64,000 bases of DNA, taken from sequence record NC_135729.1. One strand, written 5' to 3'. The DNA is from a phage. The translations under genes were made by a program, and so were the position numbers. Of this stretch, positions 4,261 to 58,100 are shown in pieces (position 1 is the stretch's first letter; each line of letters opens with the position of its first letter). Under the pieces are notes generated by a model. That model saw only the letters and a program-made list of their open reading frames with translations. It was not told the origin of the DNA and searched no databases.

Positions 4261-4290
4261 ACAAAAATGCCCCACCCTTTCGGGCAGGGC
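4261..4290 (-). terminator. rho-independent terminator
   Basis: minus-strand hairpin GCCCTGCCCGAAAGGGTGGGGC (plus 4269-4290) followed by ATTTTTGT; a second copy of the same hairpin is at 15885-15906. Confidence 0.6.
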
Positions 4291-6537: not shown

Positions 6538-6581
6538 TATGGAATCTCCGATTTTATTTGAACAACATAGAAGGAGACACT

Positions 6582-6610
6582 ATTTTAGCATCCCCTTCTG
6601 TAAATTACAA
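6582..6610 (-). promoter_or_regulatory. sigma70-like promoter
   Basis: minus strand TTGTAA - 17 nt - TAAAAT in the 83-nt gap upstream of 6172-6537. Confidence 0.35.
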
Positions 6611-15878: not shown

Positions 15879-15906
15879 CAAAAAGCCCCACCCTTTCGGG
15901 CAGGGC
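15879..15906 (-). terminator. rho-independent terminator
   Basis: minus-strand GCCCTGCCCGAAAGGGTGGGGC followed by CTTTTTGC; same hairpin as at 4269-4290. Confidence 0.6.
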
Positions 15907-15912
15907 CTAGTG

Positions 15913-16395
15913 TTAAACCCGGATACCTATTGTATACTCGGTGGATACCAATGTCAAATCTAAATTTAAAATTTCTTGCATCTCATAGTATGCGTCCAGG
16001 GTGAGATACATTTCCCCATCCTTTTCTACATACTTGTCCAAGTGCTTGAGGCATTTCGGATAACTATCGAGTGCAGCTTTCAGACACTCAAACTCTGTGC
16101 TGTTGATGAGTCCTTCCATCTTGGCTACCCGTTCTGGGGTAACGATAGCACTGTAGTGAGATTTAGCTTCCTGAATGCAATGGGTCCAAGCATCAACTTT
16201 CTCTTCGAAAAGTCCGAAGAATTTCTTTTTAGTGAGCTTCAGATTCTTTAAGTGCTTAAGCACTCGGTTGCCGATCACAGCCACATCACGAAACTTAAGG
16301 ATCACTTTGTCGATATCCTCGCGGCCTATTTTCACAAAGCAAGCCTCACACATTTCAGGAGCTGCGTAACCTACTTTCCACATAAAATCTGACAT
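15913..16395 (-). CDS. hypothetical protein
   Basis: 160-aa ORF; N-terminal WKVGYAAPEMCEAC motif shared with ORF 33311-33511. Confidence 0.4.
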   Translation of the reverse strand: MSDFMWKVGYAAPEMCEACFVKIGREDIDKVILKFRDVAVIGNRVLKHLKNLKLTKKKFFGLFEEKVDAWTHCIQEAKSHYSAIVTPERVAKMEGLINSTEFECLKAALDSYPKCLKHLDKYVEKDGEMYLTLDAYYEMQEILNLDLTLVSTEYTIGIRV

Positions 16396-22582: not shown

Positions 22583-22610
22583 AATAGAAAATCCCCGCCG
22601 AAGCGGGGGA
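22583..22610 (-). terminator. rho-independent terminator
   Basis: minus-strand CCCCGC-TTCG-GCGGGG hairpin followed by ATTTTCTATTT; same hairpin at 48721-48736. Confidence 0.65.
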
Positions 22611-26757: not shown

Positions 26758-26770
26758 CACGTTTTTGATG

Positions 26771-26799
26771 TTGACATCTGTTGAGACAATTGATAAGAT
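26771..26799 (+). promoter_or_regulatory. sigma70-like promoter (rightward)
   Basis: TTGACA (26771-26776) - 17 nt - TAAGAT (26794-26799); its -35 and the leftward -35 are the two arms of the inverted repeat GTCAACA-N9-TGTTGAC (26753-26776). Confidence 0.5.
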
Positions 26800-26830
26800 T
26801 TCTTCACTTACAGAGCACGAGAGACAACTC

Positions 26831-27808
26831 ATGAATCTTGAAAAATATTATACACCAGAAGAGTTAGAGCGCCTGCTCAAAAAATATAGACGCAAACAGA
26901 ATAATGCACGGAAACGAGATATAGAGTTCGACCTGTCGTGGGAAGAATACCTACTATTTGGTAAAAAACTTTTAGGGGAAGGGGTATGCGACTACACCCT
27001 TATACCTTTCGACATGCACACAGATGAAAACGGACTGGGAAATCCTTTCTATCCATCTCTGGAGCGGATAGATGATGAAGGTCCTTACGCAATTGATAAT
27101 TGTTGTGTGGTAGGGTTGAGGTGCAACGCTCTGAAGGACTGTCTGGTAGATAAAAAGACTGCAATATTGATAAAAGACAAAACTGATCGAAAAATTGTCC
27201 AGCAGATGATGCTCCACCTGAGCGAAGAGCGTATGGAGAAATTGAAAGGTGATTATACTTTCGAAGATTTCATCTTGCAATACGGGACAGAAGAAGATAA
27301 ACTAGCACTTTTTGACGAAGAGGAAGAAGATATGTCACCAATGCAGGACTTTAAAAATTTCATGGCTGATCGTGCAGCCAACAAACACATTTCAGATATC
27401 GTAAACGAAACTGTGACAGAAGAAATTGAAGAACAGAACTCTGAAGAGGAAAAAGAGCCTCAGGAGGTCGAAGAGGAGATTGCAGAAGAGGTTCCTGCAC
27501 TGCCTGATGATGTTGAGGTTGCTAAGGCTTACACTTTCTATTGTCAAACGTTCTACGATGCAGGTATGAAAGTTGATCTGTCGTTCAGCCAATTTAAGAG
27601 TTCATATATTCGCAAATGCTGTGCTTTAACTGGTGAACGTCTCGGAGCTGGACTTAAACCGCTGTTGGTGACCGACTGGAATAAAGGTTTCACTAAAGGA
27701 AACTTTATGGTAGTATCTCCAATTATGGAAAAAGCCATGACGGATCTTATGAAGACCACTCGCATGACAATGACTGAGTTGGCAGGTATTTTCAAACACG
27801 TTAAATAA
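26831..27808 (+). CDS. protein with two degenerate HNH-like (DRID-type) modules and an acidic linker
   Basis: N-module PSLERIDDEGPYAIDNCCVVGLRCNALKD and C-module KPLLVTDWNKGFTKGNFMVVSPIMEKAM both resemble [28 protein letters not shown] of the HNH endonuclease at 4306-4929; acidic stretch EEEEDMSP...EEIEEQNSEEEKEPQEVEEE; ATG at 26831 preferred over the TTG at 26765 that lies inside the promoter. Confidence 0.4.
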   Translation: MNLEKYYTPEELERLLKKYRRKQNNARKRDIEFDLSWEEYLLFGKKLLGEGVCDYTLIPFDMHTDENGLGNPFYPSLERIDDEGPYAIDNCCVVGLRCNALKDCLVDKKTAILIKDKTDRKIVQQMMLHLSEERMEKLKGDYTFEDFILQYGTEEDKLALFDEEEEDMSPMQDFKNFMADRAANKHISDIVNETVTEEIEEQNSEEEKEPQEVEEEIAEEVPALPDDVEVAKAYTFYCQTFYDAGMKVDLSFSQFKSSYIRKCCALTGERLGAGLKPLLVTDWNKGFTKGNFMVVSPIMEKAMTDLMKTTRMTMTELAGIFKHVK

Positions 27809-27820
27809 TGACAGGGGCCA

Positions 27821-29302
27821 ATGGCCCCTTCTGGAGTTTTAATGGATAGCAGAAGTTCAGAAATCGTTGCCTCACAGAAAGATGATGCCCTGAGAATGTT
27901 GCAGGCTGCACGTATGTATCTCCTTGAAAAGCTGCCGTTTTATGGCACACTGCTGTCAGGGTTGCAGTTCGTAGAAAACCACACATGGTGCTCCACCATG
28001 GCAACCGACCATAAACGCATCTATTACAGCCCTGAGTTCATTATGGGATTGGCTGATGAACGCAAGGCTATTCTTAAGGCCTCTCTAACTGACAAGCAGT
28101 TTGAGATGGCTGAGGTTTTCTATTCCCCCAAATCTGTGAAAGAGGTGGCCTTTCTTCTGTCGCATGAGGTGGGGCATATTATCTGTGATCACCTGGTCCG
28201 TGGTAAAAGCTTTGAGCCGGAACTGTTCAATATTGCTTGTGATCACGTTATCAACACAGGCCTTGTGGTTGACTTTAGCAAACCTCCTTGTGTTTTCTTC
28301 TCGAAGGGGAAAAGCACTACGTTCGTGAAAGGTAAGCCTTTTGGCTTCTTAGCCAGCTGCTACTGCGACATGAAGTTTCATGGATGGATTGCTGAGAACG
28401 TTTATGCAGTTCTTGATAAGCAAAGAGATCAGAATAACGGTAAAAGTAAGAGCGGTAAAGGTGAGAACTCTCAAGAAGATAAGCGACAAACCGATGATCA
28501 CATGAGTGGTAACGGTGGCACCAGTGATGATCTTGGAAAGGCTATGGGGTATGATCAGCCACAACCTGTAATCAGTCAATCTGATAAAGATCAGGCCATG
28601 CAGGACTCTGGTGACATGCTGGAGGCAGCAATGCAAGCTTCCGGAGGCCGTTGCCCTGAGGCGGTTCGTGAGTTTGTCAAGAATAGAGGTAAGCCTGTAA
28701 TTAATTATATAGACATCATCAAGCAACGCATGTTGTCTAAACGAAAGGCTGAACTGACCTACAGAAAACCTGGTCGCCGATCTGGGTCTTTGACCAGCAC
28801 AATGCGAAAAGTTGGGGCTATAAACAAGAACCAGCACGTTATTGTTCCTGGTCGTAATCCGGAAAACACCATAGATATTGTGGTAGCTTTAGACGTTTCT
28901 GGCTCGATCTCTCAAAGAACTTTAAAGAAAATGTTCAATGAAATCACCGGATTGTGCAATCTGTATAAAGAGTTTAAGGTTACAATGTTCTGTTGGTCAA
29001 CTGAAGTCGGAGAGGTTAAAGTATACACTCGCGGCAACATAGACGAGATGATCAACTATGAGGTACACTCAACATGGGGCACAACAGCTGCTTGCGTGTT
29101 CGAGTATCTGGATGCCAACATACCGAATGCAAAAGATGTCATCGTCCTGACCGACCTATACTTTGAGCATAACTTTGAACAAAAGGCTGTTGACAACAAG
29201 TGGAAAAAGTACGATACTTTATGGGTTCTCACCGAAGGGTATAATAAAAATTATATCCCTAGCTTTGGGAAAACTGTGGAATTAATCGAGTACGCTAAGT
29301 AA
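27821..29302 (+). CDS. putative metallopeptidase (HExxH) fused to vWA domain (COG3864/DUF2201-like, MoxR partner type)
   Basis: HExxH LLSHEVGHIICDH; vWA MIDAS motif VVALDVSGSIS (DxSxS); 493 aa. Confidence 0.7.
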   Translation: MAPSGVLMDSRSSEIVASQKDDALRMLQAARMYLLEKLPFYGTLLSGLQFVENHTWCSTMATDHKRIYYSPEFIMGLADERKAILKASLTDKQFEMAEVFYSPKSVKEVAFLLSHEVGHIICDHLVRGKSFEPELFNIACDHVINTGLVVDFSKPPCVFFSKGKSTTFVKGKPFGFLASCYCDMKFHGWIAENVYAVLDKQRDQNNGKSKSGKGENSQEDKRQTDDHMSGNGGTSDDLGKAMGYDQPQPVISQSDKDQAMQDSGDMLEAAMQASGGRCPEAVREFVKNRGKPVINYIDIIKQRMLSKRKAELTYRKPGRRSGSLTSTMRKVGAINKNQHVIVPGRNPENTIDIVVALDVSGSISQRTLKKMFNEITGLCNLYKEFKVTMFCWSTEVGEVKVYTRGNIDEMINYEVHSTWGTTAACVFEYLDANIPNAKDVIVLTDLYFEHNFEQKAVDNKWKKYDTLWVLTEGYNKNYIPSFGKTVELIEYAK

Positions 29303-29308
29303 GAGAGG

Positions 29309-29575
29309 ATGTTATTTATGGCAACAGAGGTAGTAATTAAAGCTGAACGCCCAGTTAAAAAAGCTATCAACACGTTCCCTGTGGGAACCATTGTGAGCAT
29401 GATCACAGAGTCAGGTCGTGTATCTACGCTGCTGATTGTGAAATCTGCATGTTCTTCTTGTGTGTGGGCTTACGATCTGGACAAGAAAGAACTAAAATAT
29501 TTTGTTGGGGAGCTGAAAGCAACCGAGCTCGATGCTCGTATCGAAGTATTTGGTGAAACTATGGAGGAAGAGTAA
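29309..29575 (+). CDS. hypothetical small protein (paralog family, member 1)
   Basis: FPVGTIVSMITESG... ; 4-nt ATGA-type overlap with next gene. Confidence 0.4.
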   Translation: MLFMATEVVIKAERPVKKAINTFPVGTIVSMITESGRVSTLLIVKSACSSCVWAYDLDKKELKYFVGELKATELDARIEVFGETMEEE

Positions 29576-29838
29576 TGACCACGAAAATCACTATTGCAGA
29601 ACCGAAAGCTAACACGCAACCTATCGAAAAATTTAAATGTGGTGAGGTGGTAACATTTACACCAGATAATGAAGATGCTAAGATTTTCGCCATGGTCACA
29701 GCTGAGTGGATGTGCGACAATACCACACAGGTTCTGCGTTTTGACACCTATCTTACCGATGAAATCAGGAACGACAAGATCGTGACTGGTGTTGATACTG
29801 AAATTATTTTCTACAAGAGCTTTTTAGAGGGTTTCTGA
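29575..29838 (+). CDS. hypothetical small protein (paralog family, member 2)
   Basis: FKCGEVVTFTPDNED... similar architecture to neighbours. Confidence 0.4.
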   Translation: MTTKITIAEPKANTQPIEKFKCGEVVTFTPDNEDAKIFAMVTAEWMCDNTTQVLRFDTYLTDEIRNDKIVTGVDTEIIFYKSFLEGF

Positions 29839-29839
29839 T

Positions 29840-30073
29840 ATGGCAAAAATTCGTAAATTATCCAGCAATCAGGTTGTGAAAGACTTTGAATCTGGAGAGA
29901 TTCTGTATGTTCGTGATGCAGATGACGAAGTTGAAGATCTTGTTATGTTGGTGGGGCACGCTGAGGACGGATGCATCCAAGCTGTTTTTCTTGAAACAGC
30001 TATGGTGCACTGGATAGAGCTGGACTTGAAAGCACGAAAACCTAAAGCAGAAATCCTGATTTACGAAGATTAA
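29840..30073 (+). CDS. hypothetical small protein (paralog family, member 3)
   Basis: FESGEILYVRDADDE... Confidence 0.4.
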   Translation: MAKIRKLSSNQVVKDFESGEILYVRDADDEVEDLVMLVGHAEDGCIQAVFLETAMVHWIELDLKARKPKAEILIYED

Positions 30074-30089
30074 CAAAAAGGAGATAGCC

Positions 30090-30539
30090 GTGTTGAGCAA
30101 GCGTGAATGCGACAGCATTAGCCTGAATTCTTATAAGAAACAATGGTTTGGGGTAGAAGTTTGCCGACTGCGGCTAGGCTCCTACCTGAACTTCGTTTAT
30201 TATGAGAGCGATAGTCGTATCGTTTCTTATGAAGTGTTCTACACTAAGAACACCTTCGAACTGCGCCGTAAAGTGGATGGTGGGAGAACTACCCCCCAGA
30301 ATAATTGGGAAACTATCCTACCTACAGATGTTATAGGAAGTCCCCTGAATGTATCTGAAGATGAAAATCTTATGGTTCATGCTATGATGGGACTTGACAG
30401 CTTAGAGCTGGCGATCTATGATATGTCCATCGAAGCAGTTAAGCTGGACTACATCGAAAACACTTTAGAGGAAGGTATCAAGAAGTTTCTCAGTGAGAAA
30501 TTAAAAGACCACTTTCATAAGGAGCTATATCTGTTATGA
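30090..30539 (+). CDS. hypothetical protein
   Basis: 149-aa ORF. Confidence 0.4.
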   Translation: MLSKRECDSISLNSYKKQWFGVEVCRLRLGSYLNFVYYESDSRIVSYEVFYTKNTFELRRKVDGGRTTPQNNWETILPTDVIGSPLNVSEDENLMVHAMMGLDSLELAIYDMSIEAVKLDYIENTLEEGIKKFLSEKLKDHFHKELYLL

Positions 30540-30781
30540 AGACCCGTAAAGAACGTAACAAAATTTTACCTGGAGCTCTCGAACACCTGATGAAGTGCAG
30601 ATCTATTTGGCACTCTGCCAAGGAAGGGCAGAAGGTGGTTGTGGTTAGTGACAATACCAACCCGTTTGGAGATTATACCACCATGATGGCCCCATATGTC
30701 CGTGATGGCGTTGTAGAAGTGGTCCCTTACAACGGTTTGCATGAACGGCACTTTGAAAGCACTTTGCTAGTGGAGCTATAG
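30536..30781 (+). CDS. hypothetical protein
   Basis: 81-aa ORF, 4-nt overlap. Confidence 0.4.
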   Translation: MKTRKERNKILPGALEHLMKCRSIWHSAKEGQKVVVVSDNTNPFGDYTTMMAPYVRDGVVEVVPYNGLHERHFESTLLVEL

Positions 30782-30783
30782 TC

Positions 30784-31350
30784 ATGGCGGTCAATGTGGC
30801 TTACAACACAGGAAAGCTTGACAGAGACATTGGGTGTCTTGTCCTTTCAGATACAGAAGAGTATTGGGGCTATGGGTTGCTGTCAGACCCACACCCGAGC
30901 AACCTTGTATCAACGGTGCTATACCGCTACGACCCCGTGCCAACTGTACACGACAAAGACATTCACGACCTTCGGATCAAGTGTCTGGAAGATCTGCTGA
31001 ACAATGGTTGCAATGATCTGCGGGTAGCCAAAGAGAAGCTTACAAACATTCACAAAGAGGAAGTGATGAGCACCCTCAGTAAGAGATCAGTGCACAAAAA
31101 GATGATGCTGAACTTTGCAATGGGTATCTACATGGATGGGTATAAGGGCGGGGACCCGATTCTCAAGCTTCGCTGCCCAACACTGTGGGAAAGGGTGGTT
31201 GACAGTAAGGACGGCACTGCCCTGCTTGAGCTTCACACTGCAGGTTGGATATGGCGGTATGTTGATGGATACCCTCTATGGGCATGTGGGCCTGGGGAAT
31301 TTGTTGACAGGCCTAGTGCGGTGGTGGACTTGCTATTGCAGTTTGAATAA
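30784..31350 (+). CDS. hypothetical protein
   Basis: 188-aa ORF. Confidence 0.4.
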   Translation: MAVNVAYNTGKLDRDIGCLVLSDTEEYWGYGLLSDPHPSNLVSTVLYRYDPVPTVHDKDIHDLRIKCLEDLLNNGCNDLRVAKEKLTNIHKEEVMSTLSKRSVHKKMMLNFAMGIYMDGYKGGDPILKLRCPTLWERVVDSKDGTALLELHTAGWIWRYVDGYPLWACGPGEFVDRPSAVVDLLLQFE

Positions 31351-31405
31351 AAGTGAGATATAAGGTGTTCATGCACCTACCAACAATACAACAAGAGAGA
31401 CTGAG

Positions 31406-31681
31406 ATGACGAAAGAAGAAGCTGACGTATTAGACTTTGCACTGGAGGCTACGCAAGAGGCTCTGGTGTTAGCTTGGAAAATGAACCAGCGTGCTGCAGA
31501 ATGCAACCGCCGAATCAATGAGATTCTGGGCATGTCTATGTATGATTTCACTATGCATGCCGGAGAGATTCCTGAATTAACTGCAGAGATGAATGATCTT
31601 GACAATAAGATTAATATCATTCTGAAGACAGCAGAAACAACTCACCAAACCGCCCGTAAATTTATCAACGAGAAGGTGTGA
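31406..31681 (+). CDS. hypothetical protein
   Basis: 91-aa ORF. Confidence 0.4.
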   Translation: MTKEEADVLDFALEATQEALVLAWKMNQRAAECNRRINEILGMSMYDFTMHAGEIPELTAEMNDLDNKINIILKTAETTHQTARKFINEKV

Positions 31682-32157
31682 ATATGGACTACAGCTACTG
31701 CGGGGAAGAAGTTCCTTTTAACTACAGCAATCTTACCACAAGCAATCCATATGAGACTCGCCACGGCACGCACATCATTGCCATTGACTTTGATGGAACG
31801 TTTAATGCGAGCCCTTTCATCTTCTCCCGCCTGATCAGGGATCTGAAGAAGGAGGGGTGGACAGTCTACCTTGTGACTTTCCGATTCATTACTCAAGACA
31901 ATGTAGACATTGAGTATTGGCGCAAGGAGCTTGATGTTGGTGTGTTTTATACTGGAGGTGTTCAGAAGGCAGCCTATCTGGCTCAGTTTGATATCTACCC
32001 AGATATCTGGATTGATGATTCTCCGGCATGTATTCCGGCTAAGAATCAATTAGAGTTTGCAATGAAGGAGATTAAGTATAAGTCTGAAGCAAAGCGTAAT
32101 GGATGGCCTTTTATTATTGAAGATTACCCAGATCCTGAACCGGAGAAAGAGCCATGA
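31678..32157 (+). CDS. HAD-superfamily hydrolase, putative 5'(3')-deoxyribonucleotidase-like
   Basis: HAD motif I HIIAIDFDGTF (DxDGT); motif IV-like IWIDDSP; about 160 aa as in NT5C-type nucleotidases. Confidence 0.5.
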   Translation: MNMDYSYCGEEVPFNYSNLTTSNPYETRHGTHIIAIDFDGTFNASPFIFSRLIRDLKKEGWTVYLVTFRFITQDNVDIEYWRKELDVGVFYTGGVQKAAYLAQFDIYPDIWIDDSPACIPAKNQLEFAMKEIKYKSEAKRNGWPFIIEDYPDPEPEKEP

Positions 32158-33511: not shown

Positions 33512-33550
33512 TTATAAAAAGAAAGGGGCCGTCTGGCCCCTTTTTATTTG
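33511..33550. terminator. bidirectional rho-independent terminator between convergent operons
   Basis: GGGGCC-GTCT-GGCCCC hairpin (33525-33540) flanked by AAAAAGAAA upstream and TTTTTATTTG downstream. Confidence 0.7.
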
Positions 33551-42315: not shown

Positions 42316-42360
42316 GTTCTCCTGAGAAAATTCCTTAGGACTATTTTAACACTTTAGGGA

Positions 42361-42393
42361 ACAAAATGCAAGAACGGAGTCCTTTCCGTTCTG
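42361..42393 (-). terminator. rho-independent terminator
   Basis: hairpin AGAACGGA/TCCGTTCT (42371-42392) followed on the minus strand by ATTTTGTTCCC. Confidence 0.5.
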
Positions 42394-47149: not shown

Positions 47150-48640
47150 TTAAATAGTTTGTTGGAAAGTTATATTACTTTCGTCGAGGTCAAACACCTC
47201 GGTCATGTTCGCAACAATATCGTTTGTAGTGTAAGCTTCATCAGAAGCTCCTACTGGTTTAACTTGAATTACCAGTCTATTAAATCTGCCTATTGACACA
47301 GCAGCAGATGCAGCACCGACCAATTGGATATTGTACAACGTATCTGCAACATCCAGTCCGTTAACAACCTGTAAAAGAGCCTCTACAATGGCATCTTTTT
47401 CGGTTGTGGAAAGCGCAGCACCGGAATAGGTAATTCTTACATCTAGGCGGTAGGTATTCGCCTTGGAGTAATAAATTCTTTCAGTTTGACCGTCAGATGT
47501 AGTGACATCGTAGAAAATATTACCATAAGTCCTGTTCGTACAGGCTATAGTTTGGTAAAGTGCTTGGCAAATGTCCTCCGTTGCACCACCAAACACAACC
47601 ACTTGGAACTTGTAAGGAGGTATACCTTTAGCATCAGTTTTATCAGTGTTGTTGGAGAACACTCTCACTTTCTCAACACCTTTCACCTCGCTTACAGCGC
47701 TAAGGATTGCAGGACGGGTAGCCTTCGATGTTAACTGTTTTGTGCTGGAAGCTCTTAAGCGATACTCGGAATCTTTCTCAACATCCCTGCCCTCGTTGAA
47801 TCTTTCTCGGTTGGTAAGCTTGATAAATCCGCTGGGAGTAGGTGACATTGTTGTCACGGTCTCTGCCTCTCTTGACAGCTCACCAGCCTCGTTAGCTATA
47901 ACATCTAGGGTGATAGTTCTTTCCCCTACAATCGGGGATACTCTGAAATCTACCCTACTATTAAGTCCAACTTGATCAAGATTCGAATTGTACCCTATCC
48001 ACAACGTTCCTGTCAACATATCGATCTGAATCAAATCGTCGTTCAACAGGGTTGTATTATCGACAATGAACTGCTTAATCTCTCCGTAAAAGCTTGGCAG
48101 ATCAGAAGAGTCCAGAGACTTATCTGTTAAAACCAGACTTTTTGTTTTGATACTTCCATCTGTCTGGTTGGTGATTTGAAAGTTGTATTTACCAATCCTT
48201 AGGTCTGGAGCATTTATTCTGTGGGCAATAAGATTCCCTGCCACCTGCACATCATTGCTAAGAACAAAGTTGCCACTATCCAGCGTATAAGTTTTGGAAT
48301 CATAAATCATATTGTACGGCACAGTTGTGTTGATTGTCAACTGGCAGGTACCTGATGATTTAGAACGGCCTCTTCGGTAAATACCCTGTCTTCCAAGAAG
48401 CTCATCCAGGTAAATACCTTCTGCCCCATACAGCGTCTGTGATGCGTATACAGATGCTGCCATAAGAATAAGTTGATACTCTCGCTCGTTGAAGATAGTG
48501 GTCAGCTTATCTGCAACGGAGTTACTCTGTACGTTGAAGTTTTCGCCAAAAGCACGGATCAGGCTTTGCTTAGTTTCAACGATTAGGTCATTTAGGGTTG
48601 GTATAACGAAACCAGCCTCTGTCAATCCATACTTAGCCAC
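47150..48640 (-). CDS. baseplate J-like (wedge) protein
   Basis: N-terminal FVIPTLNDLIVETKQSLIRAFG and YLDELLGRQGIYRRGRSKSSG resemble the Baseplate_J family signature (P.L.ELI ... LD.L..G..R....G). Confidence 0.45.
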   Translation of the reverse strand: MAKYGLTEAGFVIPTLNDLIVETKQSLIRAFGENFNVQSNSVADKLTTIFNEREYQLILMAASVYASQTLYGAEGIYLDELLGRQGIYRRGRSKSSGTCQLTINTTVPYNMIYDSKTYTLDSGNFVLSNDVQVAGNLIAHRINAPDLRIGKYNFQITNQTDGSIKTKSLVLTDKSLDSSDLPSFYGEIKQFIVDNTTLLNDDLIQIDMLTGTLWIGYNSNLDQVGLNSRVDFRVSPIVGERTITLDVIANEAGELSREAETVTTMSPTPSGFIKLTNRERFNEGRDVEKDSEYRLRASSTKQLTSKATRPAILSAVSEVKGVEKVRVFSNNTDKTDAKGIPPYKFQVVVFGGATEDICQALYQTIACTNRTYGNIFYDVTTSDGQTERIYYSKANTYRLDVRITYSGAALSTTEKDAIVEALLQVVNGLDVADTLYNIQLVGAASAAVSIGRFNRLVIQVKPVGASDEAYTTNDIVANMTEVFDLDESNITFQQTI

Positions 48641-48673
48641 GTCACTCCTCCGGTATGAAAATCTCTACAAGGT

Positions 48674-48702
48674 ATTTTACCAAATTTTGTAACAATAGTC
48701 AA
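48674..48702 (-). promoter_or_regulatory. sigma70-like promoter with extended -10
   Basis: minus strand TTGACT - 17 nt - TGG-TAAAAT; directly follows the terminator at 48709-48738. Confidence 0.45.
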
Positions 48703-48708
48703 TCTGAG

Positions 48709-48738
48709 CATAAAAATAAACCCCGCCGAAGCGGGGCT
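48709..48738 (-). terminator. rho-independent terminator
   Basis: minus-strand CCCCGC-TTCG-GCGGGG hairpin followed by TTTATTTTTA. Confidence 0.7.
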
Positions 48739-48745
48739 TTAAAGG

Positions 48746-51700
48746 TTAGTCGTGAGACTCGTTCCAAGGTCCCTGGAAGCTTGAGTTAGAACGACTAACG
48801 ATCACAGTGGGACAGGAGATTGTGACACCTGTCACGTTCGACGTTGACCACGGTGTGTAAATCTCGATAACAATGTCTATAGTTTGTTCACCCAGACCTG
48901 TTATCCCTACCGCACACATACCGTTGTTGTCGTTAAAATACTTCTTGCCAGCAAGGATCTGATGACCAGCTATCCATGCATTCAGTTGGGAGCCGGCAAG
49001 AGTACCATTCAGTTTAAAGAAGAATGTTACGTTCTTACCCTGACCTGAAACGTTATCTACGTATCTCCACCTCCAACGGCAAACCCTTTGCCGGGAGTTA
49101 TATACTGGAGCACAATCTCCGTAAGTCCTGTGTGCAACAATTGCACCTTCGAACTGGTTAGCGCGGATAACAGAAGCTTCTACACGACCACGGAAGGTAC
49201 CTCCGGTTGCATCTATGGTGCCTCTAAAGCTGCCATTATTGGCATAAACATCTCCACGGAAGGTACCACTAGTGGCGTTAACTGCCCCTGTGAAGTTACC
49301 AGAACTGGCGTTGATGTTGCCTTTCACCCACACATCCATAAATTGGGCGTGCCCGTTCTTATTAATATACCAACCGTATTTATGGTACCCGTTGCCATCG
49401 TAGTTGTTTGACGAAATTTCTTGTGCGATCTTGGCAGAGGAGATCGTGCCATTCTCTATAAAAGCGTCTTTCAAGAACGCTTGGTTGTTCTTGATTGCGA
49501 AAGCAAGGGTTGCTGTTCCATTTCCTGGGTTGTATACCGCAAAATTGTTTGCACTAACCATGAAGTAGGATTGAACTTGGCCCCCAGACCCTTCCATCCC
49601 CAGCTGGATACCTGCAACATATTTATTCCCTGCGGAGTCTACCTGTATTTTTGTGCCCCATTGAGCATTTACTTTACCCTCTAAGTCGGTTACAGCCTTA
49701 GATGTTGTAGCTACTGCAGCCCTGATCTCAGACACATCCCCAACATCATCAATGATCTCCTGCTTAGCAACAGCAAGTTCTTGACGAATAGCTGACGCTG
49801 TGCCGTTGATAAGGTCCACAGCGGCTTTGTTGGTATCGGAAATTGTAGCATCCAGCGCTGTTTTTGTGGAGGTCAGTTTTCCATCCAAAGCATCAATCGC
49901 TTGCTTGTTGGTAGAAATCTCCCCACGTGCAGAAGTTATCTGCTCTGACAGTGCAGATGTTTTCTGATTCAGCAGGTCAGTGGTGGCCTTGTTGGTATTG
50001 GCAATCAAGGTGTTGAGGTCAGTTTTTGCGGTAGTTATCTTTCCGTCAAGGGTGGTATAGTTTTTAGATACCGTCGCGTTTGTCTGACTAATCTTTTGAT
50101 CCAGAGTTTCAGATGTCCTGTTCAAAAGATCCACAGTGGCTTGGTTGGTGCTCAAGATGCTTGCGTCAAGTTCTGTTCTCTGAGTATTGATCTTACCATC
50201 TAGAGTTTTATCTCCGGCTAAATACCCGCTCTCAACTCCCTCTATCTGCTCTACCAGTTCACCTTTGGCGGCAACCAATTTCTCATCTAAAGCCTCTGTC
50301 TTTTTGTTCAGAAGATCAGTAGTTGCTTTATTGGTTGTCTCAATCAGAGATGCCAATCTTCCACTTTCAGTGTTCAGATCGTTGGTGAACTTGTTCTGTG
50401 CAGCAACAAGTTTCCTATCCAGCGCTGTGATATTGCCATTGACATCCTCAAACTTCTGAGTTGTCTCTGTAACTACCGCACCTATTCTGTCTCCAAGTTG
50501 CTGGAATGCCTCATCTACCCTACCATCCATGTATTTATTAAGCTCTGTGACACGATTTTCAACCTCTTCAATAGAGGAATCCAAAGTGCTCATCAACTCT
50601 TTATAAGTTTCTGTCTTTTTGAATTCAGCATCTATCTGAGGCATCAAATCCTCGATAGAGGTGTAGCAGCGTGCAGCGCATTCTACAAACTGAGAGCTAC
50701 CAAAAGCGTTTGTGGTTCGAATATACCAATAATAAACCTTATCGTTCTGCAGGCCTTCAGATGTCCAAGTTGAACCAACACCCATACGGGTGGCTTTTGA
50801 AGTAACGGTTGCATCACTGGTATCTGGCAATCTTGTCATCCCAGATGTCCAAAAGTCATATTGGGTGCTTACACTGGCCAAGTCTCTGCTGTGCGGGATC
50901 AGGGTAATAGCAAAGTATCCCTGTTTAACTTCTACAGAAACCGGAGCCTCAGGTGCCTGAATGTTAAACTCACAGTATGCTTCTGGAGATACACCACCTT
51001 TATAAGATGTTGCAACAACAGTGGCTGTGTAGGAACCTTTAGTCAGACCTTCAACACGGACAAACTGCTCAACTGTCTGCGCTGTCCAGACAATCTCTCC
51101 GTTTTTCCTGACCTGCACAATGTTTTGAGCATAAGTCCCAACGTTGTCCCAAGCCAAAACACCGTGAGTTACTTCTCCAGCTTGGAGAACGGAATATCTG
51201 AAGTTTTGCGGTTGAGCTACACCAGATGGAGATATCGGAATATCTACATCGCCAGAATCCGGAAGTTGCCCTGTGGCATCATTCCACTCTTTAGCATCTT
51301 GACGAAGTTTTACCTTGACACCACCCTTTTTGGTAAACTCCCATTCAAGAACTCTCATTTCTTGGCCCACTATACCAATACTTGGGAGGTCCATTGTAAC
51401 GTAACGACCAGGTTTAAATTTGAAACCTCGCATATTGCAGGTGACTTCAATAATCCTGCCAGCTCTGGCACGTCTTAGGAAGATTGCAGAAACACGTTGA
51501 GCTTGATAAGGACTGGTAACAAAGCGATAGTCTATATCGATTATCTTTCTTTCTCCATCCTTCTCTATCCACTCTGGGACAAACACTGATGGAAAATCTG
51601 TTTCAGAATACCCTTTGGTCGGACTAGTGAATCTGCCAGTTATTGTGTTGGATCTTTTGTCAAATGAGGCTTCCGGATAGATCTTGACCTCACCACAGAC

Positions 51701-52585
51701 ACAATCCTCACTCAGTGTCATTGTTGCCGGGCCATAGTATGCACCAACCAACAAACCATACTTACCAGCTACATAACTAAGATCTGCACCGCAAGCTTTC
51801 AGCATTTCTGCCATAATACTTGCTGGGGCCTCATCCATGTCAAACTCACCGTTAATGGTGTAACGGCGCTCACTGGTTCCGTCTGCGTTTTTTACCGCCT
51901 CGTCGCATATGTTGGCAGCCTCCTTGAAGGACTCCCAGTTGATGGTTTCGTCAGGACATTTAAGGTACGTTCTTAAATAGTCTAGGATCACCAAGGCAGC
52001 GTTATTGGTGTACACCTCTTTACTGATACGAGGATCATAGCATTTTTTACCAATCTTGACGAGTGTAACGTTTGGCAACCCAAAAGGAAACTTGTTAGGG
52101 TCAAACCTGAAGCTGGCACGTAGCCAACTGATCCCTCTACCTATCATGTCAGGTGACCATGATGGGCAGTGTGTACCCATGAAAGGATCAGATGTTTTTC
52201 TGTCGTTATGTAGCTCCCACGATACCAGATCTCCATACGAGGAAATAGGATTACCGTCGATAAGTATATCTTCTATACCTTCCAGAGGGTGATTGGCAAG
52301 AACAATAGCACAATGGAGGGTTCTGTCGCTATCCTGCTCCAAAAACGCAAGCAATCCAGATGTGCGTGTCTTCCCATACACTACAGAGCAAGGTGCAGCA
52401 GAAGATCTGAGAAGATTTTGTCTATCTTGCTGACTTCTGTAAGATTTGTTGCCCTCAAAAATCTTATCCAAAGTTCTGGTGGTCACAGTGTTCAGGCTGT
52501 CAGCCAGAGCTGCCTTGGATGCGTTCCAGTCATAACTTGAAGATCTTGCAGAAGCAACGATGTTATCAATCATTGCAATTGGCAT
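48746..52585 (-). CDS. host-specificity / central tail fibre protein with lambda gpJ-like FN3 and distal regions
   Basis: GYFAITLIPHS and YYWYIRTTNAFGSSQFVE vs lambda J GYFQITATPH and YYFYIRSVNTVGKSAFVE; NKYVAGIQLGMEG...FMVSANNFAVYNPGNG vs KHYVAGIGLSMED...FLVAANRIAFIDPANG; central repeat array (TDLLN-containing heptad-like units). Confidence 0.65.
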   Translation of the reverse strand: MPIAMIDNIVASARSSSYDWNASKAALADSLNTVTTRTLDKIFEGNKSYRSQQDRQNLLRSSAAPCSVVYGKTRTSGLLAFLEQDSDRTLHCAIVLANHPLEGIEDILIDGNPISSYGDLVSWELHNDRKTSDPFMGTHCPSWSPDMIGRGISWLRASFRFDPNKFPFGLPNVTLVKIGKKCYDPRISKEVYTNNAALVILDYLRTYLKCPDETINWESFKEAANICDEAVKNADGTSERRYTINGEFDMDEAPASIMAEMLKACGADLSYVAGKYGLLVGAYYGPATMTLSEDCVCGEVKIYPEASFDKRSNTITGRFTSPTKGYSETDFPSVFVPEWIEKDGERKIIDIDYRFVTSPYQAQRVSAIFLRRARAGRIIEVTCNMRGFKFKPGRYVTMDLPSIGIVGQEMRVLEWEFTKKGGVKVKLRQDAKEWNDATGQLPDSGDVDIPISPSGVAQPQNFRYSVLQAGEVTHGVLAWDNVGTYAQNIVQVRKNGEIVWTAQTVEQFVRVEGLTKGSYTATVVATSYKGGVSPEAYCEFNIQAPEAPVSVEVKQGYFAITLIPHSRDLASVSTQYDFWTSGMTRLPDTSDATVTSKATRMGVGSTWTSEGLQNDKVYYWYIRTTNAFGSSQFVECAARCYTSIEDLMPQIDAEFKKTETYKELMSTLDSSIEEVENRVTELNKYMDGRVDEAFQQLGDRIGAVVTETTQKFEDVNGNITALDRKLVAAQNKFTNDLNTESGRLASLIETTNKATTDLLNKKTEALDEKLVAAKGELVEQIEGVESGYLAGDKTLDGKINTQRTELDASILSTNQATVDLLNRTSETLDQKISQTNATVSKNYTTLDGKITTAKTDLNTLIANTNKATTDLLNQKTSALSEQITSARGEISTNKQAIDALDGKLTSTKTALDATISDTNKAAVDLINGTASAIRQELAVAKQEIIDDVGDVSEIRAAVATTSKAVTDLEGKVNAQWGTKIQVDSAGNKYVAGIQLGMEGSGGQVQSYFMVSANNFAVYNPGNGTATLAFAIKNNQAFLKDAFIENGTISSAKIAQEISSNNYDGNGYHKYGWYINKNGHAQFMDVWVKGNINASSGNFTGAVNATSGTFRGDVYANNGSFRGTIDATGGTFRGRVEASVIRANQFEGAIVAHRTYGDCAPVYNSRQRVCRWRWRYVDNVSGQGKNVTFFFKLNGTLAGSQLNAWIAGHQILAGKKYFNDNNGMCAVGITGLGEQTIDIVIEIYTPWSTSNVTGVTISCPTVIVSRSNSSFQGPWNESHD

Positions 52586-53022
52586 TAATACCTCCAGACA
52601 TCAACAACGATAGAATCTTTCATGTCGAACATAAAGACCCCTTTATCACCTTTCGCCCAAATCTGGTTGTTCCAGAACACACCAGCGGTGAGCCCGTTCA
52701 GACCTTCGAAAATAACAATATCGCCACGCTGAACCTGTTTAGGAGTATCCAGTCGAGTCATAAAGAGATCAAAAATAGTAGGCAGGTGTGTAGTTTTGAA
52801 ACGAAGCATGCACCATCTTTTGCTTTCCAACTCTGTTTTATACGTTCCTTCGAAGTTGGAAAGAAAATCTGTTCCGTATTGGGCATCAACACACTTAGCC
52901 GCAAAGGTGCAACAATCGTGGAATCCCCATTCAAAAGGTATGGTGGCCTCTTCGTCAAACACTTTCCACAATCTTTCTTGCCAATCCACTAAACGAGGGT
53001 GTGTGCTCATTAAACCTCCCAA
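52585..53022 (-). CDS. tail assembly protein, NlpC/P60-like (gpK-like) candidate
   Basis: GFHDCCTF (Cys motif) and RGDIVIFEG resemble NlpC/P60 DCS and GDLVYF; no clear catalytic His seen. Confidence 0.3.
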   Translation of the reverse strand: MGGLMSTHPRLVDWQERLWKVFDEEATIPFEWGFHDCCTFAAKCVDAQYGTDFLSNFEGTYKTELESKRWCMLRFKTTHLPTIFDLFMTRLDTPKQVQRGDIVIFEGLNGLTAGVFWNNQIWAKGDKGVFMFDMKDSIVVDVWRY

Positions 53023-53576
53023 ATGATCGGGCGGCTCGCCACCTGATCCACATATTTAAAAAATCTGTCATTATCGTTTCTTGAGCTGTGGCTTTCCTCC
53101 GTGTACCGATAAGGAAAACCTCTTAACCAACTGTTGAAGATGGAAGAGATGGATATTGACAAAGCACTATTCTCACCTGTCTGAATAGCCATATCTGTTA
53201 TAAGGCCGTCAAACAAGCCATTAGTTGTGACAGGTAGACCATTCTCCATAGCGGTAATGTACAACGTGGCACGACAACCAGAATACTCCGTCTTCAGCAG
53301 ATCACCCACATACTTAGGATCAAACCCGTTCAATGTTGCTACCACAGATCCGAAGTTGGTGGCATCTTTCTCAGACACAGCAGTTAATGTTGCTGATCCC
53401 CCTATCCCTATAAAATGTTGCCCCTCAATTACTACAACACCAGTGCCTGAGCACACCCTGACAGTTCCTGTCGGTAGCTCCAGCTTTGCAGCAATTAAGA
53501 TCTCAACACCATCAAGCTCCAGCTTTTCAAGAAATAAATTATCTAATGGCGCTCTGATCATCTTAGAAATCCTCAA
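53010..53576 (-). CDS. tail protein (positional)
   Basis: 188 aa, overlaps neighbours by 13-14 nt in the tail operon. Confidence 0.3.
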   Translation of the reverse strand: MRISKMIRAPLDNLFLEKLELDGVEILIAAKLELPTGTVRVCSGTGVVVIEGQHFIGIGGSATLTAVSEKDATNFGSVVATLNGFDPKYVGDLLKTEYSGCRATLYITAMENGLPVTTNGLFDGLITDMAIQTGENSALSISISSIFNSWLRGFPYRYTEESHSSRNDNDRFFKYVDQVASRPIIWEV

Positions 53577-54153
53577 AGAAGTTGATAACTATATTATCAC
53601 CTTTTTGCATAGCATCGACTTTTTGCTTAATTTTATAAATATCTCTGATATGAAACCTACCCTTCGGGGATTGAGTTATTATCTTCATAGTGTCCCCTGC
53701 GGCAATAGGTTTTCTAAGTCTTGGAGATATGCTTATAACAGCAGACCCAACACCATCGCTACGCACTGGAGCTGTTACCACTTTCAATTCATCATTGACA
53801 GATATTTTATCCCCAGCTCTGGCTATGTCTCTGTTTGGCTCCCACCCAACCGTCTTCAAAAAATCGTCGTTACCAGTAGGCCCAAGGGCGATTGGCTCAT
53901 TAGCTGTAACTGAGTGACCGTAAGTTTTAATAAGAAAGATGTTTCCATCTTTATACACCTGATCAACAAAGCTCTTAAGCTCTAGCAACTGTGACTCGCT
54001 GATATTGGAAACCGTCAAAGTGCCTTTCCAGTTAGGTGTGGCATAGGTTACTTTTTGCGTTTTACCTGTAAACGGACTTTTAAACGTAACAATATCTGCC
54101 AGCAGCTCCAATCTAATATCTGGAAGGTATCTAGGCCTTTCCCATAAAAACAT
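53563..54153 (-). CDS. tail protein (positional)
   Basis: 196 aa, first gene after the promoter at 54185-54213. Confidence 0.3.
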   Translation of the reverse strand: MFLWERPRYLPDIRLELLADIVTFKSPFTGKTQKVTYATPNWKGTLTVSNISESQLLELKSFVDQVYKDGNIFLIKTYGHSVTANEPIALGPTGNDDFLKTVGWEPNRDIARAGDKISVNDELKVVTAPVRSDGVGSAVISISPRLRKPIAAGDTMKIITQSPKGRFHIRDIYKIKQKVDAMQKGDNIVINFFEDF

Positions 54154-54184
54154 TGTGCCTCCAGGTTAAACAATCATGATAGTT

Positions 54185-54213
54185 ATTTTACCAGATTTTG
54201 AGTTAATACGCAA
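54185..54213 (-). promoter_or_regulatory. sigma70-like promoter with extended -10
   Basis: minus strand TTGCGT - 17 nt - TGG-TAAAAT; same CAAAATYTGGTAAAATA block as at 48674-48690. Confidence 0.4.
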
Positions 54214-54245
54214 TACAAACAAAAAGCCCCCGCCGAAGCGAGGGC
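54214..54245 (-). terminator. rho-independent terminator
   Basis: minus-strand GCCCUCGC-UUCG-GCGGGGGC hairpin (one G.U pair) followed by TTTTTGTTTG. Confidence 0.65.
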
Positions 54246-54252
54246 AAAACAG

Positions 54253-57200
54253 TTACTTCAGTTTCTCTTGCAACCCAGTAACAACCTCTGTCAATTTTTT
54301 AACCTGCTCCTCAAGGGCGGTTATTTTATCGTCCTGTTCCCTGCAAACCTGGACAAGCAAGCCTGTTACGGCTGCGTAATCCACGCTGTAGAATCTTTCC
54401 TCTGTTATCAAAGGAGTTCCATCTTGATCAGGGTTTGGGATTTCCTTTCTTTGCACGAAAGAGCTAACTGCTTCCGGCAGCGCTTCAAGCACTTCTTGTG
54501 CTATAACACCTGCATAAGGCATACCGTTCTCTTTAAGAGTGTAAGTATAACCCTTCATCTTCCGGATAGCTTCTAACGCATCAGGAATAACAGCTATGTT
54601 ATCTTTCAGATCTCTGTCAGAACTCTGATTGACAGATGTGCAATTCACAGCGCCGTTTACAGAAAGATATCTTGATTTATCTGGCAAGGTACCGCAATGC
54701 CATACCCAATTTGATTGAGACTCGTCAAGAACCTTAAACTCTAACACGTTTGGACGATCTCCTGTGCTGCCGTTACCCCAATAATACATATGGGCGGCAT
54801 TAGCAGGCATGTTGCCACCGTTATTAGTAACATGACTTCCAGAAATATATACCTTTAACTCTGGGGTTGGTATTTCCCCTTCCGGGGTTGTTCCTCCATA
54901 CCTGAAGCTAACACCATTACCACCTGTTTGGGTCCACGGGCCCCAAGTGAAGACCTGTTTCACCATATTCCCATAACGTGTAAATCTATCGCCATGGTAG
55001 GTAATATATTCTTGAACACACCCATTACCGTTATTGGCGTTATTTTGCAACACAATAAGTGTTCCGGCCTCATTTACGGGATAATGACGATCATATGTTG
55101 CATCATTATTTGCAGGCTGATGGTAAATACCTTCCCACAATCCGTGATAGGTGTTAAGGTCTGAAGAACCAAGACCTTGACCCCTGTGTTGCATAGCCTT
55201 ATTCCAGGGATGGTGATTACCACCTTCTATAGACCTGGTGTATAAGTTACTTTGTCTGCCAGCAATCTGGAAAGCGTAGTTTCCCGAGAATCCTACAGAT
55301 AACCCGCCTACAACCATGGTATCTTGTGGGCCGTTAACATTACCAGCTATTATTTTTGACGGGTTGTTAGGCCCGAACTGGTTGTTCCAGTCTGCACCTG
55401 TGTGGCATACAAAACCACCTGGTGCTGAGAAAGTACCATCTTTGTTGAAGTTGTAGAATCTATGAGCTGTGCCTACAACATCACGAACAATAACTTGACC
55501 AGCCTCTGGAGTAGATCTGAACTCTGCTTGACCTTTAAGGCCAGCACCATTACCGCATTTAGAGGTAAACGTGCCGTTAGTTAGATCCTCTGTTCCATCT
55601 GATGCACACTGGAATCCTGCGTTAGAGAATAGCGCCTTTCTAGGACCACTGTAGCACAAATAGTCAAAACCGTCAGCCCATAGCTCTACTTTAGGCATGT
55701 TCATTTTGCTCATTATCGCATAGCGTTCAGCAGTGCCTATATAGTGCCACTGTGTGCCGCCGCCAGTGTAGAACCCTGAAGTGCCTTTGAAGTCAACAAT
55801 AGGTCTGGTATTGGTATTGTTATCTCCAAGAACAGCTAGATTCAAGTCTGCTGATTGAAGAGGTGCAACGAACTTAACCCCATCCTGATTGTTTGTTACA
55901 GAGCCGACTTGATAATCTTGCTCTCTGGTAAACACTTCGACAACATTTCTACTTGCGTATATGCTGACAGGGAAAGCACGAGCCTCTGCATAGAAAGCAA
56001 CATACTCTTGTTTACCCCTTGTTGGAGCAACCATCCCAAGAAGTGCTTTTTCATTCTTCTGGTAGAAATTTACTACCCCGTAGAAAGAGTCTCCCCTGTC
56101 CGTCCAGCCGCCAGTTCTATAGTGACACTGCAGGGTGGCACAGTTCATAGGGTCATTTCCAGATGAAAACCTGGTGACTATAGTAATATCAGTGCCAGTT
56201 GCTGGAGCATAGTACGGATCTGTTCTAACGATGATTGGGTAGTATTTCCCATCTTCCATCCCTGCGGTTCTTGGCAGTGTTAAGAAGTCTTTTACACCTG
56301 CCGCTATAGGAACTTTGAACAGATTCTGAGCATCTGCTAAAGTTGTAGCTCCAGTGCCACCTGCGGCTTGAGGTAAAGGTTCCCACTTGGCCTTCCGGTT
56401 GTTATAAACACCCCACTCCAAAGTGCCGTTACCGGATTCGTCCATCCCACCATCCCAGATAACCATCTTGGCGGCTTTCTTGGACCCCCAGAAGCCTCTT
56501 TCTGCTCCTGAACTACGGATCCACTCTCCAAGTCCCCAGTTTGTCAGCTGACCAGTAAGATCCCCAACCTGCATATATTTAGGGCAGTCTAATACTCCGT
56601 CTTCGCGGAAACCTAAATATCTGTGAGTTTCAGATCCTTTTGCACCTTTGTGCAGGTGGATTGTCAACCAAGCTTTATTGTCGTTTCTTACCTCAGAGTA
56701 GATCCTATAACCATGCTCAAGGACACCGTCAGCGTTGTATTTGTCCCCGTTAACAATACCTGATGCTGACTTAACATCAGCAGAACTTTGAGACAGGTAA
56801 AGGTGCCCGAAGGTAGGGGAATTTCTAGACCCGAGACCGATGTGCGATCTAAAGGTATCATCGTTACGAGGTCTGACCATCGGCTGCCATGCAGTCCACT
56901 GGTTTGTGTTGGCTTGATAGGTTCTCAAATACCAAACATCTACGTTAGAGAATGGATAGTATTCCTGACGACAACCTGTACCGCCGTTAGCATTGTTCTG
57001 CCAAACAATCAAGTGACCAGCACCAGAACCTGCAGGGTAACCATTTTCCTCAGTTGCATAAGCAGTCATCGGCTGGTAGTATACACCATCCTGATTACCA
57101 GTCAAGTTATTGATATTGAAATTTGGCTCAAGGGCTGCACGTTGCTTATAGAAAGCCCCGATATTGATACGGACTCCAGCGGCATCTCTGGCCCCTGTAC

Positions 57201-58068: not shown

Positions 58069-58083
58069 TCTTTCTCCTGAAAG

Positions 58084-58100
58084 GGGGCAAACAGCCCCCT
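58084..58100 (-). terminator. intergenic hairpin (possible attenuator)
   Basis: GGGGGC-AAACA-GCCCCC; weak T-tract on the minus strand, so terminator function uncertain. Confidence 0.3.

Follow-up and report, generated by a model that had tools for sequence, protein, structure and literature searches.

We analyzed recurrent hairpins and adjoining promoter-like sequences in a 64,000-nucleotide (nt) stretch of phage DNA (sequence record NC_135729.1; hereafter, the window), with a focus on two intergenic sites in its tail region, at 48.7 and 54.2 kb. It is highly probable that, in this rV5-like genome, transcripts of the minus strand stop at terminators and restart at extended −10 promoters and that the likeness among the copies reflects a shared grammar and convergent hairpins. 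We infer termination, initiation, and late timing from directly observed sequence, folding energetics, positional conservation, and genome-wide orientation bias. The window, 97 to 99.5% identical to published genomes, is from an rV5-like myovirus of the genus Vequintavirus; megablast searches with 46–56 kb and 41–64 kb returned more than 100 near-full-length matches at 95 to 99.5% identity, all from Vequintavirus.

The recurrent hairpins would be Rho-independent terminators located just past stop codons, each with a short G+C stem that ends in a hyperstable UUCG or GAAA tetraloop and with a U-tract behind it. At three sites (42.3, 48.7, and 54.2 kb), a sigma-70-type extended −10 promoter, TTGnnn-N14-TGnTAAAATA, would come after the terminator, and transcription would restart from it 30 to 33 nt before the next start codon. 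The late tail region would then be laid out in insulated units, in the order fiber gene, stop, restart, lambda-like tip module, stop, restart, and baseplate genes. The T-rich tail of the terminator probably also serves the promoter as its A/T-rich upstream region.

Predicted terminator-promoter cassettes of the tail region

The genes flanking the 48.7-kb and 54.2-kb elements are all on the minus strand, and the hairpins and promoters make sense only on that strand, which is the sense strand of the flanking genes. In the tail region, a window coordinate equals the rV5 (NC_011041) coordinate plus ∼20,054. The third of the cassettes listed below, at 42.3 kb, had been missed by an earlier reading made from the sequence alone (the sequence-only reading).

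48673–48702, minus strand: predicted promoter P036; −35 TTGACT (48697–48702), −10 TAAAAT (48674–48679), 10-mer TGGTAAAATA (48673–48682)
48718–48739, minus strand: predicted intrinsic terminator hairpin AAGCCCCGC-UUCG-GCGGGGUUU, after the stop codon (48746–48748) of gp37 (lambda-J-like tail fiber)
48746–54153, minus strand: four-gene unit between the two cassettes; open reading frames (ORFs) homologous to rV5 gp40–gp37
54184–54213, minus strand: predicted promoter P040; −35 TTGCGT (54208–54213), −10 TAAAAT (54185–54190), 10-mer TGGTAAAATA (54184–54193)
54226–54245, minus strand: predicted intrinsic terminator hairpin GCCCUCGC-UUCG-GCGGGGGC, after the gp41 tail-fiber stop codon (54253–54255)
42342–42392, minus strand: third cassette; hairpin AGAACGGA-AAGGAC-UCCGUUCU at 42371–42392

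At 48.7 and 54.2 kb, the spacer reads, along the minus strand, stop codon, hairpin, U-tract, −35, N14, TGG, TAAAAT, Shine-Dalgarno sequence (SD), and start codon. P036, with a 17-nt spacer ending in TGG and a score of 10/12 with the TG, is followed by the SD GGAGGAG (48645–48651) and the GTG start (48638–48640) of a baseplate-wedge gene (Pfam match Baseplate_J), with 33 nt from TAAAAT to GTG. P040, with the same spacer length and TGG end, is followed by the SD GGAGG (54158–54162) and the ATG (54151–54153) of the gp40 homologue. The sequence-only reading had proposed a TTGNNN-N17 promoter within a few nt of each terminator. A promoter of the TTGNNN type does follow the hairpin at both sites, but the geometry is TTGNNN-N14-TGG-TAAAAT, in which N14 precedes TGG and 17 nt is the spacer to the −10 hexamer, and the U-tract fills the 12 to 16 nt that separate the −35 from the foot of the hairpin. 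The block CAAAATYTGGTAAAATA, described there as shared, was found only at 48673–48689 and 54184–54200. The third cassette lies upstream of a gp30 tail-fiber homologue; its hairpin (−14.8 kcal/mol, z = −3.35) overlaps the −35 TTGCAT (42366–42371), which is followed by N14 and TGTTAAAATA (42342–42351).

The minus-strand hairpin sequence CCCCGCTTCGGCGGGG is exact at 22593–22608 and 48721–48736 and has one mismatch at 54228–54243 (shuffled sequences predict no occurrence); the copies of CCCCGC-TTCG-GCGGGG reported earlier (two exact and a third with one mismatch) were therefore correctly placed. In full, the 54.2-kb hairpin is GCCCTCGC-TTCG-GCGGGGGC (54226–54245), and the “mismatch” in it, a C>T change, still pairs, as G.U; in phage YN3 this position holds a fully paired C. 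The 48.7-kb hairpin (−16.5 kcal/mol, z = −3.4; 0/200 shuffles fold as well) is followed by the U-tract UUUAUUUUUAU at 48707–48717, and the 54.2-kb hairpin (−16.9 kcal/mol, z = −4.1) is followed by UUUUUGUUUG at 54216–54225.

Across the window, a hairpin scan found nine strong terminator-like hairpins, all oriented to the minus strand, with one, at 33.5 kb, bidirectional. The hairpins fold at −14 to −22 kcal/mol with stems of 6 to 11 bp, better on the minus strand than on the plus strand, and z is −3.3 to −4.1 for those at 48.7, 54.2, 4.27, 15.9, and 42.4 kb. The stems are G+C rich and stable, as in intrinsic terminators (stems of 5 bp or more, loops of 3 to 8 nt), the 22.6-kb hairpin being weaker; the U-tracts are UUUAUUUUUAU, UUUUUGUUUG, AUUUUCUAUUU, AUUUUUGUAU, and UUUUUGCAUU; and hairpins with U-tracts begin 3 to 10 nt past co-oriented stop codons. 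Bacterial Rho-independent terminators use C(UUCG)G or GNRA tetraloops, and the hairpins here are typical of them by sequence, with no difference found. A comparison with Rfam returned only a sub-threshold rsmX match (26 bits against a 56-bit cutoff) that was driven by the hairpin; a known structured RNA was rejected on this basis.

A genome-wide motif search, proposed earlier as a check, was run on the rV5 genome, which was reassembled from four fetched pieces. TGNTAAAATA is enriched, one-stranded, and mostly gene proximal: it occurs eight times, always on the minus strand (shuffles predict 2.6 ± 1.7), seven of the eight copies lie 17 to 43 nt upstream of an SD and start codon, and the structural region holds six of the eight. 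Wherever a copy is gene proximal (seven cases), TTG stands at −35 with a 17-nt spacer. A TG at −15/−14, one base upstream of a hexamer with A−11 and T−7, was found at all nine aligned rV5 late sites (eight in the structural region and one early-region copy) and at all nine sites across the subfamily, with TTG at 17 nt in all Vequintavirus copies and only TTnnAA in other genera. The proposal of modular transcription units is supported, in the form of predicted intrinsic terminators and sigma-70-type extended −10 promoters that delimit the units. A literature search for the motif string found nothing relevant.

The 90- to 110-bp spacer upstream of the baseplate-wedge gene was examined in nine phages that represent five or more lineages of the Vequintavirinae: Vequintavirus (the window), Seunavirus (SSE121 and FENT2), Mydovirus (KpS8), Certrevirus (CR3 and DU_PP_IV), and unclassified phages (TH18, LTH01, and ChuuTotoro). 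All nine spacers contain a stop codon, a G+C hairpin of differing sequence, a U-tract, and TG(G/A)TAAAATA, with an SD and start codon 25 to 35 nt further on. Hairpins at the homologous site in other Vequintavirinae are GGGGC-UUCG-GCCCC, GGGACC-UUCG-GGUCCC, and similar, and outside Vequintavirus the −35 of this spacer is a weak TTnnAA. Position and 10-mer are thus kept while all else turns over, which argues for function, and the pattern points to a −35-independent extended −10 promoter type. Within Vequintavirus, the cassettes are 99 to 100% conserved in nine genomes, including one that averages 90.7% identity, and the 105-bp 48.7-kb spacer has 0 to 1 differences across them, that genome included. 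CR3 and TH18 have the wedge-gene cassette and lack the tip module at that position, so the wedge cassette is ancestral and not imported with the tip module.

The elements themselves are already known: most were predicted in 2013, some are annotated in GenBank, and their interpretation, recombination aside, restates published predictions. Kropinski et al. (Virol J 10:76; PMC3606486) predicted 33 promoters and 20 terminators in rV5. In their Additional file 4 (Table S4), P036 (TATGCTCAGATTGACTATTGTTACAAAATTTGGTAAAATACCTTGT) is the 48.7-kb promoter base for base, and P040 and P030 have the same sequences as the 54.2-kb and 42.3-kb promoters. Among the terminators there, t003 (CCCCGCTTCGGCGGGGATTTTCTATTT) is the 22.6-kb hairpin, t041 is the 54.2-kb hairpin, and t213 and t232 are the GAAA hairpins at 4.27 and 15.9 kb; promoter P231 is also listed. 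That study described the motif TggTAaAAtA, with eight copies including P036 and P040, as a putative late promoter. Both the 48.7- and the 54.2-kb hairpins carry terminator annotations in GenBank (phages HdK5 and Murica), although the former is missing from Table S4. Compared with the present analysis, the rV5 paper does not treat terminator and promoter as a composite unit and does not show conservation in other genera of Vequintavirinae (PMC3606486).

A probable shared grammar, convergent hairpins, and known systems

The exact 16-mer hairpin was found at at least 120 loci in a scan of 2.9 million viral contigs (IMG/VR), with mutually unrelated flanks, and among the matches listed, 98 of 125 (78%) have at least five T in the next 8 bases. 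We regard the 16-mer as a generic, convergent terminator design. Given its occurrence in unrelated viral contigs, recurrence within one genome is no evidence for a mobile or duplicated cassette, and a mobile or duplicated UUCG hairpin repeat was rejected on the strength of these loci. The GAAA 22-mer GCCCCACCCTTTCGGGCAGGGC, exact at both positions claimed for it (4269–4290 and 15885–15906), is found in only two viral contigs (137 and 84 kb), both rV5-like and each with two copies. The two copies have in common two G.U pairs, a T-run, and an AGGAGA ribosome-binding site, with ∼45 nt similar; longer homology upstream of the hairpins was rejected because identity outside this core is ∼40% (chance level). 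The GAAA pair appears to be a genuine, tiny, lineage-specific two-copy repeat and an exception to convergence. T-even phages carry terminators 87 to 89% similar to the GAAA hairpin.

The nine rV5 late promoters were aligned on the 10-mer and compared in 36 pairs with fixed positions excluded. Identity between P036 and P040 is 53% for the core and 44% for 57 free positions, against all-pair means of 30% and 29%; the pair heads both rankings, a place it shares with P063n/P064 for the core and with P056/P064 for the free positions. The shared “CAAAATY” is probably a few extra matches in an A/T-rich spacer. Duplication of the 48.7- and 54.2-kb cassettes is not demonstrated, as the pairwise comparison of the nine late promoters yielded no outlier. 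The earlier description of near-identical repeated cassettes does not hold up: the hairpin is generic, and P036 and P040, 44 to 53% identical outside fixed positions, share their top rank with other pairs. Likeness among the copies is best read as shared regulatory grammar plus convergent hairpin design, with no mobile repeat apart from the GAAA pair.

Two further candidates were discarded. Apparent extra cassettes in phage V18 were rejected, the gaps being coding sequence split by frameshifts. A shared “CCTTGGAA...CTTTAAAG” upstream of the Mangalyan 54.2-kb and window 48.7-kb hairpins is a coincidence because the reading frames differ.

Composite terminator/promoter cassettes are known from T4-type phages as PeSLs (promoter-early stem-loops), which extend from a stop codon to the next SD and have been proposed as linkers for modular shuffling; they are early, numerous in hyperplastic ORFan regions, and conserved over ∼100 bp between copies, and they recombine into mini-circles (Arbiol et al. 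2010, PMC2839356; Comeau et al. 2014, PMC4122927). The cassettes here resemble PeSLs in combining an intergenic G/C stem-loop terminator and a sigma-70-like promoter between stop codon and SD. They differ in copy conservation, since there are three in the window and their similarity is confined to functional positions instead of extending over ∼100 bp in many copies, and in setting, since they flank late baseplate, tail-tip, and fiber genes and not early, hyperplastic regions. With respect to junctions, the nine Vequintavirus genomes provide one at such an element (54251), and the others fall 25 to 160 nt or further inside genes.

Extended −10 sigma-70 promoters of Escherichia coli have the form TGnTATAAT. 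The promoters here likewise have TG one base upstream, match the hexamer at 5/6 positions (TAAAAT, with A−11 and T−7 kept), and tolerate a weak −35. They differ in that the third hexamer base is always A, not T, that an invariant A follows the hexamer, and that they are limited to the late genes of one phage subfamily. T4 late promoters, TATAAATA, are read with gp55/gp33/gp45. In common with these, the promoters here have an A/T-rich −10-type element upstream of virion genes, a 3′ AAATA, and a −35 that is dispensable in some lineages. However, the motif is TGRTAAAATA and not TATAAATA, and Vequintavirus keeps a TTG −35 at 17 nt.

Possible late timing, read-through, and recombination

The reading of these elements as terminators plus promoters is well supported, and a number of points weigh against it. 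With TTG, TG, and TAAAAT combined, unmodified host polymerase should initiate strongly here as soon as infection begins, and a strong host-type promoter fits poorly with late timing unless another factor acts. Furthermore, the invariant A at −10 position 3 and the invariant A after the hexamer exceed the usual sigma-70 preference. The 22.6-kb hairpin folds only marginally better than shuffles (−14 kcal/mol, z = −1.75), and the positions of t232 after P231 and, in rV5, of t064ABC after P064 are odd for efficient terminators. A search of the available literature found no transcript-mapping or transcriptomic study of any rV5-like phage.

The mismatch with timing could be met if TGRTAAAATA were a dedicated late promoter, read by a host polymerase that is phage modified or carries a phage-encoded specificity factor and thus functionally analogous to the T4 gp55/gp33 system at TATAAATA. 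We consider this possible but, on balance, doubtful. In five or more lineages the 10-mer stays constant as the −35 decays, and it is almost entirely restricted to the structural region and to one strand. The constant A at hexamer position 3 and the constant A behind the hexamer, both kept across genera, are compatible with a phage-specific factor. The sequence is also unlike that of the early promoters, in which TTGACA is strong and the −10 hexamer varies; the window has a gene (26765–27808) for an Srd-like “decoy of host sigma-70” protein; and Kropinski et al. remarked on the likeness to the T4 late consensus (PMC3606486). That paper, however, reports no gp55, gp33, or gp45 homologues for rV5 (PMC3606486), the RefSeq annotation of rV5 includes no sigma-like protein, and every Vequintavirus copy has the TTG −35, 17-nt spacing, and TG that are all sigma-70 needs. 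PHROGs and Pfam scans of ten proteins from the plus-strand block (26765–32157) found nothing sigma-like and only the Srd-like protein as a candidate regulator.

A second alternative concerns the hairpins, which may mainly be RNA 3′-end protectors or processing or attenuation signals in long polycistronic transcripts and inefficient as terminators. It draws on the following hairpins, which stand apart from the three cassettes.

22593–22608, minus strand: hairpin CCCCGC-UUCG-GCGGGG with U-tract AUUUUCUAUUU, between the gp3 homologue and the endolysin gene
4269–4290, minus strand: GAAA-tetraloop hairpin GCCCUGCCC-GAAA-GGGUGGGGC, with a U-tract and then SD and ATG; −19.1 kcal/mol
15883–15908, minus strand: second GAAA hairpin copy, upstream of a DNA methyltransferase gene; −21.8 kcal/mol

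The 22.6-kb hairpin is directly followed by the SD GGAG and a GTG start with no promoter between, and those at 4.27 and 15.9 kb are directly followed by a ribosome-binding site and start codon, again with no promoter between; owing to its two G.U pairs, the hairpin at 4269–4290 folds fully on the minus strand only. A fourth hairpin, GGGGGC-UGUU-UGCCCCC (58072–58100, minus strand), lies between the gp42 and gp41 homologues with an SD directly after it. Genes downstream of all four have an SD and start at once and need read-through, two hairpins are inside the leaders of predicted promoters, and the 58.08-kb hairpin has a poor U-tract (UUUCAGGA). In contrast, the 48.7- and 54.2-kb hairpins are canonical, with 8- to 9-bp G+C stems and U-tracts of at least 8 nt, and a promoter of its own comes after each, as would be expected where termination is efficient; protector and terminator roles are, moreover, not exclusive. 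We therefore judge protection or processing rather unlikely as the main role of these hairpins. Within the terminator reading, the hairpins with no promoter after them (22.6, 4.27, 15.9, and 58.08 kb) most likely serve as leaky terminators or 3′-end stabilizers, because the gene that follows depends on read-through.

Within 15883–15950 (minus strand), the 15.9-kb GAAA hairpin comes after P231, a predicted sigma-70 promoter (TTGACA...TACAAT), and would therefore be part of the methyltransferase 5′ leader; the order is promoter, hairpin, SD. P064 and then t064ABC of rV5 have the same promoter-hairpin order as P231/t232.

More broadly, TGRTAAAATA might mark a distinct late-transcription system, with a phage factor that redirects host RNA polymerase, and the terminator-promoter punctuation might double as a PeSL-like linker for receptor-binding modules; we regard this combination as unlikely. 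To examine the earlier suggestion that the cassettes could act as recombination hot spots, we compared base-level identity profiles of nine Vequintavirus genomes against window 41–64 kb. The 3′ ends of the fiber genes adjoining the cassettes are mosaic, and the three cassettes are essentially invariant. At 48.7 kb, divergence starts 25 to 95 nt inside the gp37 homologue, and at 54.2 kb it starts 130 to 160 nt inside the gp41 homologue in three genomes. Most divergence boundaries are intragenic (48770–48840, 49600, 50600, 54380–54410, and 55200–56400). The sole junction at an element is in the Mangalyan-type allele, in which homology to the window ends at 54251, just upstream of the 54.2-kb hairpin. 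The hot-spot claim is thus weakly supported at best: one junction (Mangalyan) falls at a hairpin, but most breakpoints are inside tail-fiber genes. The cassettes would be found at module ends because the variable receptor-binding domains sit at gene 3′ ends.

The Mangalyan allele (L134 13400–13900 against window 54251–55200) has a different C-terminal ∼300 codons of gp41 and an extra 110-amino-acid (aa) ORF. Phages FFH2, nomine, APECc02, ime, and naswa may share this structure, as judged from coverage and piece count only. In the window, the gp41 fiber (1271 aa) has a conserved last ∼50 codons (54253–54400) preceded by a mosaic part; the conservation is attributed to a C-terminal intramolecular chaperone domain, Peptidase_S74 (endosialidase chaperone), at residues 1150–1201 of 1271.

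Could the cassettes nevertheless be PeSL-like short homology patches that exchange, insert, and excise receptor-binding modules (fiber C-termini and the lambda-like tip module)? Their invariance next to mosaic fiber C-termini in the nine Vequintavirus genomes and the break at 54251 beside the 54226–54245 hairpin are in favor, as is the finding that other genera have different fiber genes upstream of the same wedge-gene cassette, with CR3 and TH18 having one cassette and no tip module; the architecture and tests of PeSLs have been described (PMC2839356, PMC4122927). Against this, most divergence boundaries are intragenic, the conserved end of gp41 is accounted for by Peptidase_S74, the copies resemble each other at functional positions only and no more than other pairs of late promoters do, the hairpin design is generic, the setting is one of essential late genes and not of hyperplastic ORFan regions, and none of the sampled genomes has lost the 48.7–54.2-kb module and kept a single chimeric cassette. 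We consider such a role quite improbable.

Neighboring genes, further elements, and implications

The four-gene unit at 48746–54153 encodes a Dit-like protein, a tail protein, a DUF6950 protein, and a J-like fiber (1279 aa), with Pfam matches to Phage_Tail_Tip, Ig_J, and DUF6950, and is predicted to be a lambda-like tail-tip module.

At 6569–6599 (minus strand), a 12- to 14-bp hairpin, AGAAGGGGAUGCU-AAAAU-AGUGUCUCCUUCU, encloses an extended −10, TGCTAAAATA, with TTGTAA at −35. Of the early-region copies of the 10-mer, only this one has a gene downstream of it; that at rV5 110811 has none. The layout, with a stem-loop over the −10, resembles one PeSL subclass. At 33522–33543, a palindromic hairpin, AAAGGGGCC-AGAC-GGCCCCUUU, has T-runs on both strands and lies between the convergent plus-strand block and the late minus-strand block; it is a predicted bidirectional terminator (rV5 t026/t027). 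The sequence TTTAACATAG, which precedes the 58.08-kb hairpin, nearly equals the stop-codon-rich strings before the GAAA hairpins, TTAACATAG and TTTAACACTAG.

Just upstream of the 4.27-kb GAAA hairpin, at 4306–5016 (minus strand), is a Cys-rich ORF of 236 aa that overlaps the start of the neighboring gene. It is the counterpart of rV5 ORF213, annotated as “endonuclease,” and may be a free-standing homing endonuclease beside the repeated hairpin. At 266–456, in a region with few convincing ORFs, three direct repeats of ∼52 nt (65 to 79% identical, with spacings of 74 and 65 nt and core GAAAACGAAAAAYMGAT) could be iteron-like or regulatory. The records closest to the window, at 99.0 to 99.5% identity, are labeled “Campylobacter phage C7/C9/A112b,” with Campylobacter jejuni as the deposited host; these host labels look doubtful, the genome being that of a typical rV5-like coliphage.

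Phages of the rV5 type find wide use in E. coli O157 biocontrol and in the BASEL collection. The elements described here would define the transcription units of their tail and receptor-binding genes, and the unit boundaries would therefore be natural insulated cut points for engineering fiber swaps, although in practice this is of modest value. The constancy of TGRTAAAATA throughout the subfamily offers a testable handle on late-gene timing in phages without a known late sigma factor.

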